Of a stretch of 64,000 nt of DNA, positions 33,487 through 35,545 are shown piece by piece. Every line of letters starts with the position of its first letter. Position 1 is the stretch's first letter. Source of the DNA: a virus (Duplodnaviria > Caudoviricetes); the IMG/VR virus record IMGVR_UViG_3300005614_001084, positions 108,311 through 172,310 of that record, one strand, 5' to 3'. The position numbers were made by a program, and so were the translations under genes. The notes beneath the pieces were generated by a model. That model was not told the origin of the DNA. It saw only the letters and a list, made by a program, of their open reading frames with translations, and made no database searches.

Positions 33487-34071
33487 TCAATCCTTGAGCC
33501 ACTCCTCGCTGAGCTTGGTGTAGCTGTTCGCGACCGGACGACCGCCCATCATCTCCGGCACGATCTTCATCAGGATGTCGGCGTCATTGAGCGCGTTGTG
33601 TGCTGCTTCCGGATCGTAGTTGATCTGAAGCGCGCCAGCGACATCGAGCAGCTTGTGGTGTGCACGCATGCGCAGACTCGGATGGTGCTTCTTCGCGAAC
33701 TCCATGGTGCAGAGAGTGGGGACGCCCCGCGGCCACTCCTCGCGCGGAATCACGTAGCTCAACATCCGGGCGTCGAAGTTCATCTGATGCGCCACCCACG
33801 GCACATCCATCCGCAGCATGTCGAGGACCTGCGGACGTATCTCGTAGAACTCCGGAGAGTTCTCCACGTCCTCGTCCGAGATGCCGTGAACCGCTCGGGC
33901 TCCTTCGGAGATCGCACGCTTCGGGTTCACGAGAGAATGGAAGACACGAATGATCTTCCCCTGACGCGCCAGGATGATTGCGATCTCGCAGATGCGGTCC
34001 TCTCTGCTGAAGCCCGTGGTCTCGGTGTCGATGGCGAGATAGGGCGTCTCGGACCAGGTAAGGTCGATCAT
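33487..34071 (-). CDS. dnaQ: DnaQ-like (Pol III epsilon-like) 3'-5' exonuclease
   Basis: AIDTETTG, VHGISD, VAHQMNFD, AHNALND. Confidence 0.9.
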   Translation of the reverse strand: MIDLTWSETPYLAIDTETTGFSREDRICEIAIILARQGKIIRVFHSLVNPKRAISEGARAVHGISDEDVENSPEFYEIRPQVLDMLRMDVPWVAHQMNFDARMLSYVIPREEWPRGVPTLCTMEFAKKHHPSLRMRAHHKLLDVAGALQINYDPEAAHNALNDADILMKIVPEMMGGRPVANSYTKLSEEWLKD

Positions 34072-34700
34072 GGAGTCTCCTTGTGGATCAGCTCGTGGTT
34101 GGCGGTGTTGGGGTCGACGAAGGCACGGAACATCTCCATCGCGGCGCGGTGGCAGATGCCTTCGATGTCTTGGGCGTAGAGCGTGTAGACCGAGTGCTCG
34201 GGCTCCAGGTGGTTCTCCTCCTGTGGCCTCAGCTTCTCGTGAAGGATCTCCCGGAGCTTCAGCGCGACGACGGTGAGCCGGTCCTGGATCTCCGGATCCT
34301 CCAACGTTCCCTTCACCTCGACCTCGGTGGGGATCGGAGGAGCGAAGCCACGAAGCCATTGCTTCGCCATCTCCGCAGCAAGACCGAGGATCGAGGCGTA
34401 GGCCTTCGCCGTCAGCACTCCTCCTCGATCGTTGTAGTTCTGTGCTTCCTTGAGGATCGCCTCCTCAGCTCGATCGAGAAGATCCTTGGTCTTCATCCCC
34501 GCGTTGGCAGGGATCTTACCGGAGGCGATGCCTACGGCCAGCATCACCTCTGCGATCGCCTCCAGCATCACCTGAGTGTTGCCTTTCTCGCAGTGGGCTC
34601 TGACGAGCTTCTGAGCTTCAGCACTCAGCACGCCGTAGGCTCGAAGCACCCCGCCTATCCTGGACTCAGTCACGGCCGTCTCCCCATTCCTCCCCAACAT
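34068..34700 (-). CDS. Hypothetical protein
   Basis: 210-aa ORF divergent from 34883; alternative GTG start at 34673. Confidence 0.7.
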   Translation of the reverse strand: MLGRNGETAVTESRIGGVLRAYGVLSAEAQKLVRAHCEKGNTQVMLEAIAEVMLAVGIASGKIPANAGMKTKDLLDRAEEAILKEAQNYNDRGGVLTAKAYASILGLAAEMAKQWLRGFAPPIPTEVEVKGTLEDPEIQDRLTVVALKLREILHEKLRPQEENHLEPEHSVYTLYAQDIEGICHRAAMEMFRAFVDPNTANHELIHKETP

Positions 34701-34733
34701 CCTTACTTACTGTCATCTCGTCTCTCTTTCACT

Positions 34734-34763
34734 CGTATAAGGGTCTGTGGATAGCTGTGTCAA
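34734..34763 (-). promoter_or_regulatory. Possible divergent sigma70-type promoter
   Basis: TTGACA-18 nt-TATACG (weak -10). Confidence 0.45.
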
Positions 34764-34775
34764 GGAAATGGTGTG

Positions 34776-34804
34776 TTGACTCTGGTTTGAGATATATGTA
34801 TTCT
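34776..34804 (+). promoter_or_regulatory. Sigma70-type promoter
   Basis: TTGACT-17 nt-TATTCT. Confidence 0.7.
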
Positions 34805-34882
34805 CTCTTTTTCATCAAGATCTATCTCTCTTCGATACTGACATCACGTAGGAGAGATACAACGAGATGACAGGATGTAAGG

Positions 34883-35545
34883 ATGTCCAGGCGCACACTC
34901 CCGGGTGAACTTCGAGCGAGACTGGGCCTGCTGGTCTCTCAGGCCGAGAAGCAGGTCCGGCTACCCAGTCCGAGCCAGATGGAAGCCGACCGTGCCCCGA
35001 GGATCCGCTACAAGCCGTCGGGACAGAAGACCCAGGCGGAGAGCTTCAAGGACCTCGACCACTGGCTGGAGGAGGCGCAGGCCGGCATGCCGGACGACTC
35101 CTTGGCTCGTGCCGCCAACGTCTCGATGACGGCGGTGCTGGAGTGGAGGAAGGCCAGAGGGGTGAAGCGCAAGCGAGGCTGGCAGGCGAGGCGAGAAGCC
35201 GACGTCTGGGCGATGGACGCCTTCGGTGACGGATTCATCTCCGAGATCCAGCAAGCACAGTCGCAGCTCAAGGGTGCCTGGGATCTTCCGGAGTACGTGC
35301 TTCGTCTACCGCTAAAGTACGACTCGCTGTGCCGAGCCGCGTACCATCTCGCCGCTGATCTCGGTATGACGCCGGACGAGATTGCCGGAGCCATCGGACT
35401 CAGGATCCGCGACGTCGAGATGGCGATCGCGGTGGAGACGGCATACCTCACACGCGTATCGATCTCTTGCTCAAACTGTGGTCGCCCGTGCGATCCCAAC
35501 TACGGAGAGTTCTGTTCCACTCGATGCAAGGCGGAGAAGACATGA
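34883..35545 (+). CDS. Putative transcription regulator: two HTH-like motifs and a C-terminal Zn finger
   Basis: PDDSLARAANVSMTAVLEWRK; MTPDEIAGAIGLRIRDV; CSNC..FCSTRC. Confidence 0.7.
   Translation: MSRRTLPGELRARLGLLVSQAEKQVRLPSPSQMEADRAPRIRYKPSGQKTQAESFKDLDHWLEEAQAGMPDDSLARAANVSMTAVLEWRKARGVKRKRGWQARREADVWAMDAFGDGFISEIQQAQSQLKGAWDLPEYVLRLPLKYDSLCRAAYHLAADLGMTPDEIAGAIGLRIRDVEMAIAVETAYLTRVSISCSNCGRPCDPNYGEFCSTRCKAEKT

Follow-up and report, generated by a model that had tools for sequence, protein, structure and literature searches.

Lineage-specific repeats around a divergent early promoter region of an uncultured tailed phage: candidate operator-type sites beside a gene for a double helix-turn-helix protein

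The window analysed here is a stretch of 64,000 nucleotides (nt), which corresponds to bases 108311-172310, i.e. the last 64 kb, of the 172,310-bp record of an uncultured tailed phage (IMG/VR record IMGVR_UViG_3300005614_001084). According to CheckV, this record is a complete genome; its GC content is 63%, and the genes of the window include one coding for a protein with a tail-sheath-like domain as well as genes of nucleotide metabolism. The element under study lies between positions 34697 and 34886 of the window, where two divergently oriented genes are separated by an AT-rich spacer that is bounded by a 25-nt inverted repeat. The locus is a real and conserved regulatory element of an ordinary kind: repeats of the operator or iteron type at a divergent early promoter. 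All promoter positions given below are predictions. The following features make up the locus.

33487-34071, minus strand: gene for a DnaQ/RNase T-type 3'-5' exonuclease, the second gene of the leftward pair
34068-34673, minus strand: left gene, P0001 family; 201 amino acids (aa) with GTG 34673 as the start codon, 210 aa with ATG 34700
34697-34721, minus strand: left arm of the inverted repeat, minus-strand reading ACGAGATGACAGTAAGTAAGGATGT; about +6 to +30 of the predicted leftward transcript
34722-34861: spacer of 140 bp, GC 0.40, with the back-to-back promoters inside
34734-34763, minus strand: candidate leftward promoter, TTGACA-18-TATACG, read by eye
34776-34804, plus strand: rightward sigma70-type promoter, TTGACT-17-TATTCT, from a promoter scan
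34809-34816, minus strand: inner repeat unit GATGAAAA, at the predicted rightward transcription start
34838-34845, minus strand: inner repeat unit GATGTCAG, a match to GATGWHAR
34862-34886, plus strand: right arm of the inverted repeat, ACGAGATGACAGGATGTAAGGATGT; about +52 to +76 of the predicted rightward transcript
34883-35545, plus strand: right gene, coding for protein P0002 (220 aa); it opens a rightward block of 12 genes

The two arms, each 25 nt long and separated by 140 nt, match in 23 of 25 positions. Both the coordinates and the match count are exactly those reported in a first-pass annotation of the window, which had described the arms as a leader shared by the two genes. The similarity is beyond that found by shuffling: when the 300-nt region was shuffled 200 times, no inverted match of 25 nt was better than 17/25. 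Across the 172-kb genome, this is the sole inverted repeat of at least 21/25 whose arms are about 16-375 nt apart. The search for further copies that the annotation had proposed found no third arm in the genome, even when 6 mismatches were allowed, and a scan with a pattern made of flank plus arm matched no second record. A 19-base arm pattern matched GAGATGACAGGAGGTAAGGATG at a gene start on an unrelated 5-kb viral contig (L012:2937-2958); BLAST found no relation to the window, and this match is most likely due to chance in a Shine-Dalgarno (SD) context.

The arms have an internal structure. The right arm is built of 8-bp units in the order GATGACAG-GATGTAAG-GATG, and the left arm reads GATGACAG-TAAGTAAG-GATG. 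The mismatches between them amount to GGATG versus GTAAG; the left arm thereby lacks the SD-like GGA, while the right arm includes an SD-like CAGGA plus the ATG of the regulator gene. Further units occur between the arms, such that five matches to GATGWHAR are found within 220 nt, compared to 0.37 expected. Units of this kind coincide with the predicted rightward transcription start and also occur shortly after the predicted leftward start. The unit at 34838-34845 and the first unit of the right arm form a small palindrome, CTGACATC-N20-GATGACAG.

The first-pass annotation had placed both start codons within the repeats. For the right gene this is correct: ATG 34883 is the first start of the frame, and the N-termini of the homologues align there (M..TLPG). 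The left reading frame does open at the ATG of the arm (34700). However, the left gene most likely starts at GTG 34673, because 22 of 23 members of the P0001 family have a length of about 200 aa and because the closest homologue (70% identical) begins with MTESRI, which is exactly the product expected from GTG 34673. A GGGGAG is found six bases upstream of this codon, and the left arm is located 24-48 nt upstream of it. ATG 34700 is probably a mere part of the repeat unit. Since the left arm has no SD-like GGA and the gene appears to start elsewhere, only the right arm demonstrably holds a start codon; the sequence of the left arm is kept for another reason. Each arm also contains an ATG (ACGAG-ATG-ACAG) that opens a short frame. 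The one in the right arm (34867-34908, plus strand) encodes MTGCKDVQAHTPG and overlaps the regulator's ATG. The one in the left arm (34716-34666, minus strand) encodes MTVSKDVGEEWGDGRD, and its stop codon overlaps the likely GTG start (GTGACTGA). These frames may be accidental or may represent coupling upstream open reading frames.

The spacer is as AT-rich as the first-pass annotation had stated: its GC content of 0.40 contrasts with 0.63 for the window and is the lowest of any 140-nt stretch in the window and in the entire genome. The rightward promoter described there was recovered at 34776-34804. The 172 kb contain no more than five intergenic sigma70-type matches of at least 9/12, and this promoter is among them. 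Another of the five, at genome position 99799 on the minus strand, has an identical TATTCT -10 box. The weaker leftward promoter can be read by eye; however, it is below the thresholds of the scan, whose rule is broken by the last base of the -10 box. The -35 boxes of the two promoters are 12 bp apart.

Relatives of the locus were searched for in several collections. A DNA and protein search of a phage collection yielded no cultured relative, and a contig scan yielded none in cellular genomes; scans of IMG/VR with three alignments added only two genomes. The comparison comprises three complete genomes, namely that of the window's phage (G000), G001 (177.5 kb) and G002 (171.9 kb). Besides the window, five loci were read: L005, which is part of G002; L006, which is part of G001 and the same place as L004; and L007, L008 and L009, which are metagenome contigs.

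Conservation in relatives, to which the first-pass annotation had tied its interpretation, was found in all five of these loci, with repeats of differing sequence. The layout common to the six loci is a divergent P0001/P0002 gene pair around an AT-rich spacer of 183-318 bp, which has a GC content of 0.37-0.50 as compared to 0.57-0.66 in the flanks. Each spacer contains 2-4 copies of a repeat that is built of 7-8-bp units. Copies left of the centre share the orientation of the left gene, and copies right of it that of the right gene, with the exception of the inner pair of L006. The repeat itself depends on the lineage: it is GATGACAG/GATGTAAG in the window, (GTTAGTA)2 in L005 and L007, (GTATAGA)2 in L006 and GTTAGATTCTTAG in L009. 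In L008, (GATAAGAT)n is contained in a 44-bp inverted repeat and is identical to the window motif in 16 of 20 positions. In our reading, a TAG/AAG core that recurs every 7-8 nt is common to all of these motifs. In each of the three complete genomes the motif is confined to this spacer. Lineage-specific repeats that are limited to one spacer are what one would expect if a factor and its sites act locally. L008 additionally contains a central AT-rich palindrome (TTTATATGTAGTATAT / CTATACTACATATATA; L008:2824-2864) between two left and two right repeat clusters.

L005 and L007 share the same repeat and allow for a more direct comparison. Their coding DNA is 80% identical, and 76% identical at third codon positions. 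Within the spacer, the left copy is identical in 14 of 14 positions, and the inner copy together with the adjacent TTGAC -35 box in 19 of 22. From the -10 box up to the ATG, identity amounts to 93%; in the remaining spacer it is 50-62% (about 54%), and a 12-nt indel is present there. The repeat copies can be taken to be under constraint, i.e. purifying selection, because they are 86-100% identical where the rest of the spacer reaches 50-62%. The inner copy abuts the TTGAC -35 box in both loci, and a rightward TTGAC -35 box is present in all three loci with a predictable promoter. A 12-mer, TATGTATTCTCT, which covers the predicted -10 box of the window (34795-34806), is the reverse complement of the conserved -10 region of L005:2934-2945 and L007:393-404. 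The local alignment has a p value of about 0.003 before correction for 30 comparisons. The shared 12-mer could reflect a symmetric -10 element, an old inversion or chance.

The right gene is the first candidate for a protein that binds these repeats. An AlphaFold model of P0002 (mean predicted local distance difference test (pLDDT) score, 71.5) contains two three-helix modules that resemble helix-turn-helix (HTH) domains, a disordered linker between them and a C-terminal CxxC...CxxxC zinc ribbon. Foldseek returned weak rows only (sigma factors, double homeodomains and the DNA-binding domain of a transposase), and matches of the family to Pfam were below threshold (YdaS/Cro-like, Sigma70_r4_2, HTH_23 and treble-clef zinc families). 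A profile search yielded 137 clusters at 50% identity, all of them uncharacterised. One family member, P0100, passes the Pfam thresholds for HTH_28 and HTH_23. The most distant profile matches (P0151, P0156, P0159, P0160 and P0165; 277-550 aa) consist of 2-5 tandem HTH_23 modules, each of these proteins matching the first HTH of P0002 several times. A tandem HTH_23 design would be suited to tandem DNA units. The description as a double-HTH zinc-finger protein in the first-pass annotation is therefore backed by a homologue and by distant relatives that reach the HTH_23/HTH_28 thresholds, whereas P0002 itself has sub-threshold Pfam matches and a model of moderate confidence. Its 18 homologues, like the 24 of P0001, all come from metagenomes or viral contigs; the closest homologues of the two proteins, P0003/P0021, show 78%/70% identity. 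Identical copies of P0001 and P0002 are encoded in a second assembly, on a contig of 188,773 bp. The P0001 and P0002 genes appear to travel together, judging from several pairs of homologues whose contigs are equal in length.

In the reading that we favour, with a probability of about 0.5, the repeats are operator-type protein-binding sites that control the back-to-back early promoters and are probably bound by the adjacent HTH protein. It is preferred because the repeats are locally confined, lineage-specific, under selection, arranged around promoters and located beside an HTH gene. Protein binding, the identity of the binder and the effect on transcription are what we infer from this arrangement. 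According to this proposal, the two 25-bp arms would be the outer copies in a small group of repeats that consist of GATGWHAR units and bind protein, and they would bracket the main AT-rich early control region of the phage with its back-to-back sigma70-type promoters. The left promoter would drive the expression of an uncharacterised helical protein and of the DnaQ-like exonuclease, and the right promoter that of the double-HTH/zinc-ribbon protein and of the eleven small genes after it. Both arms would be bound by a protein that the phage itself encodes, most likely P0002, with one HTH module per repeat unit; the inner units at 34809 and 34838 would be bound by the same protein. Binding would tune or shut both promoters and thus provide autoregulation and a switch from early to later expression, possibly with bridging of the arms across the 165-bp promoter segment. 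The SD sequence and the ATG of the regulator would be part of the right arm only since the site abuts the gene in this lineage, and the ATG of the left arm would be a by-product of the GATG unit.

Several observations weigh against this proposal. The predicted recognition helices of P0002 are near-invariant across lineages whose repeats differ: residues 81-92 (SMTAVLEWRKAR) of the window protein recur unchanged in L007, and L006 departs from them by a single K-to-R change. The right arm is located about 50 nt downstream of the predicted start, which is a weak position for a classical repressor. The unit spacing of 7-8 bp is unlike the helical repeat of DNA, and a distance calculation revealed no consistent helical phasing among the copies across the loci. 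Moreover, most loci have a leftward promoter that is weak or cannot be recognised. Of the possibilities raised by the first-pass annotation, symmetric operators for the regulator are the best fit with regard to the conserved layout, the confined lineage-specific repeats, purifying selection and the adjacent HTH gene, and the invariance of the recognition helices is the weak point of this reading. Either P0002 reads only the shared TAG/AAG core, or another part of P0002 or another protein sets the specificity. At eight positions of P0002, the window and L008 agree with each other and differ from the other loci; among these positions are residues 155-162 and the zinc knuckle (CSNCGRPC in both), although six sequences are too few to conclude from. 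The zinc knuckle, being identical in these two lineages, is a candidate specificity determinant.

Operator sites of this type have precedents in cultured phages. The heteroimmune phages P2, WPhi and P2 Hy dis possess C repressors whose direct-repeat operators vary in sequence, length, position and spacing (PMC1904268; PMC1904263). As in the six loci studied here, close relatives keep the regulatory layout. The present repeats differ in that clusters of 7-8-bp units are inverted around divergent promoters, whereas the P2 promoters are convergent; in addition, neither an integrase nor any other hint of lysogeny was seen in this phage, the recognition helices of the candidate binder hardly vary, and its binding is predicted only. 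In the lytic phage phi29, the regulator p4 represses the early promoters and activates the opposite one; p4 does not belong to the HTH proteins, and each of its sites is a palindrome. The central control region on which p4 acts comprises the early promoters A2c and A2b and the divergent late promoter A3 (PMC2731898). In both phages, several regulator sites, which are candidate sites in the window, occur within about 200 bp across divergently oriented promoters; activation is known for phi29, whereas nothing in the window locus points to it. Apl of coliphage 186 and Cox of P2 act on short direct-repeat arrays between early promoters (PMC7498355). The common feature would be an HTH protein that polymerises on short direct repeats between or over early promoters. 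In contrast, Apl sites are one helical turn apart and not 7-8 bp (4 bp in the left arm) as here, and Apl acts at attP too, while this phage has no integrase.

A replication origin, which the first-pass annotation had also considered, is a tentative and rather unlikely alternative. In this case, the AT-rich core would be the unwinding element, and the outward repeat clusters would be iteron-like sites for an initiator, either P0002 or P0001. It is in line with this idea that the repeat-flanked homologous spacer contains the 200 bp of lowest GC content in each of the three complete genomes (GC 0.41 in G000, 0.375 in G001 and 0.485 in G002); the next-lowest trough is clearly shallower in each genome, at a GC content of about 0.46-0.535. 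The troughs have the following positions.

G000: 142954-143237
G001: 88886-89085
G002: 137046-137245

However, AT-richness is also needed by host sigma70 promoters in a 63% GC genome, where such promoters are rare. The repeats consist of tandem units that are symmetric about the AT-rich core, with two copies on each side of the central AT palindrome in L008. Origins of the iteron type and the archaeal origins flanked by origin recognition boxes (ORBs) have repeated initiator sites beside an AT-rich segment. The resemblance lies in asymmetric, oppositely oriented sites on both sides of the most AT-rich segment, with a DNA-binding protein encoded beside it. The units are, however, far shorter than ORBs and than the 17-22 bp of classical iterons, and sequence and fold searches with P0001 and P0002 gave no match to a known initiator family or fold. 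The DnaA-box-like sequence noted in the first-pass annotation is indeed present:

34746-34754, plus strand: TGTGGATAG, identical to the DnaA box in 8 of 9 positions, within the spacer of the leftward promoter

A near-match is found in just one (L009) of the five related spacers, so that the box is absent from four of the six. The GC-skew check suggested by that annotation was uninformative: in all three genomes, the extremes of the cumulative skew are located 8-70 kb off the locus and track gene orientation. The DnaQ-type exonuclease in the left operon and the nearby nucleotide-metabolism genes would suit an origin; in contrast, the genes for DNA polymerase A and a DnaB-like helicase map some 120 kb from the locus on this record. 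The main arguments for this proposal are an AT trough that is the deepest of each of three complete genomes and the symmetric, iteron-like layout, set against a DnaA-like box that is not conserved and a skew that does not help.

An origin could coexist with promoter control, and many phage origins are activated by transcription. Carried further, this would make the AT-rich island a combined module of early promoters and a bidirectional origin, and the P0002 family a new kind of phage initiator-regulator that reads tandem 7-8-bp units. By analogy, P0002 would read the outward units much as Orc1/Cdc6 reads ORB elements in archaea. We regard this extension as distinctly unlikely.

Improbable, too, is the idea that the repeats act as RNA. 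Both early mRNAs would carry the same purine-rich, unstructured 25 nt, which would be read by a trans-acting RNA-binding factor and would co-regulate translation, stability or antitermination of the two operons. Given the predicted starts, both arms are indeed transcribed in the same sense, the right arm covers SD sequence and AUG, and the outermost copy on each side runs in the direction of its neighbouring gene in six of six loci. Regulation through RNA leaders is exemplified by the translational operators of the T4 RegA type and by sites of the CsrA type, and a DNA inverted repeat is also what the nutL and nutR sites of phage lambda amount to, with near-identical, lineage-specific elements of the same sense in two divergent early transcripts. 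BoxB of these nut sites is an RNA hairpin. In contrast, the arms studied here are unstructured: they fold at 0 kcal/mol, and the leaders have no significant structure (z score of about -1.1) and no boxB-like hairpin. Although the rightward leader is 93% conserved between L005 and L007, one of the conserved copies in these loci is located upstream of the -35 box and hence of the promoter, and would be outside of the rightward mRNA. Furthermore, the distance between the right-side copy and the start codon varies from 0 to about 40 nt, and an antisense RNA has no source in the genome, since a complementary third copy is lacking. A more specific version was prompted by AAGGAUGU, which is present in both arms and matches what we take to be the ARGGAUGU core of the CsrA consensus from systematic evolution of ligands by exponential enrichment. 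The phage has no CsrA gene, and the GGA is missing from the repeats of most relatives (L005/L007, L006); this idea was set aside, as it does not generalise to the relatives.

The first-pass annotation had further proposed an invertible switch, in which recombination between the arms would flip the 140-bp segment and swap the strong and the weak promoter between the two operons. Inverted repeats that flank a promoter-bearing segment are indeed a feature of the invertible segments of Hin, Gin, Cin and Fim. The annotation had seen no recombinase in the window, and this holds for the complete 172-kb genome: a search for Resolvase, Phage_integrase and DEDD_Tnp_IS110, which recovered matches in control genomes, found no recombinase of the serine, tyrosine or IS110/Piv type. 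The repeats of the relatives do not resemble recombination sites either; there are 3-4 copies, some of them 13-15 bp long and away from the start codons, so that neither number nor length fits the known inversion systems. A 25-bp repeat with two mismatches would also be a poor substrate for general recombination. The reverse-complement 12-mer shared with L005 and L007 is a possible trace of an inversion during evolution. However, a TTGAC -35 box is found on the rightward side of the 12-mer in both lineages, such that a simple flip fails to explain the match, and the repeat preceding GTAGGAGAGAT has the same orientation in the window and in L007. We therefore consider this switch highly improbable. 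A recent, functionless local duplication or gene conversion of the translation-initiation region, as might be suggested by just two copies in the genome of which one overlaps a real start codon, is scarcely credible in view of equivalent repeat sets in five divergent loci, their conservation above coding level between L005 and L007, and a left copy that still matches in 23/25 positions despite the loss of the SD-like GGA and probably without a role as a start.

With repeats as operator-type sites as the favoured reading, the locus marks the probable master early control region of a group of uncultured phages of about 170-180 kb, and possibly also their origin. The pairing that is offered is one of lineage-specific 7-8-bp tandem sites with an uncharacterised family of two-HTH/zinc-ribbon proteins. 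If this pairing is true, the four repeat families in six loci constitute a natural series for studying how several HTH modules read tandem units, and the invariant recognition helices in the face of changing sites are a small puzzle. If it is not, the locus represents ordinary phage regulatory architecture.

A second short motif was found in the spacer. The three copies reported in the first-pass annotation are present at the positions listed here:

34721-34857: region of the second motif; three copies of TCTCTCTT (34721, 34802, 34825) and one inverted GAGAGA (34852)

This corresponds to four copies per 140 bp, as compared to 0.51 per kb genome-wide, and the outer two prolong the inverted repeat imperfectly. 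Elsewhere, the phage uses TTTTGCC(C)TATAAGATCT, which was found in six clean copies before SD-ATG starts, two of them in the window (1481 and 3467, minus strand) and four at genome positions 101132-107217. It is a phage-specific promoter type that is distinct from the sigma70-type promoter of this locus; the spacer contains a loose look-alike only.

A tract with a G at every fourth base extends across the left arm on the minus strand (34682-34734; 14 units with two misses). Within the arms, this periodicity comprises five units, and about 39 tracts of such quality exist genome-wide. Systems similar to VIPR make use of (GNNN)n RNAs (bioRxiv 10.64898/2026.04.26.720920). A corresponding reading as a guide or target tract was dropped, as none of the (GNNN)n tracts in the genome corresponded to the locus, whether with skip 0, 1 or 2.

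The product of the left gene resembles no known fold or family, and searches of solved structures with P0001 gave weak, generic rows. The gene is followed by one for a DnaQ-type exonuclease in L006 and L009 too. The model of P0001 is all-helical (pLDDT 83.8). An alignment of the family (A2) revealed a hypervariable loop at about residues 145-170. Near the C-terminus, the motif PN..NH..IH includes one Cys and two His residues that are invariant and possibly form a metal site.

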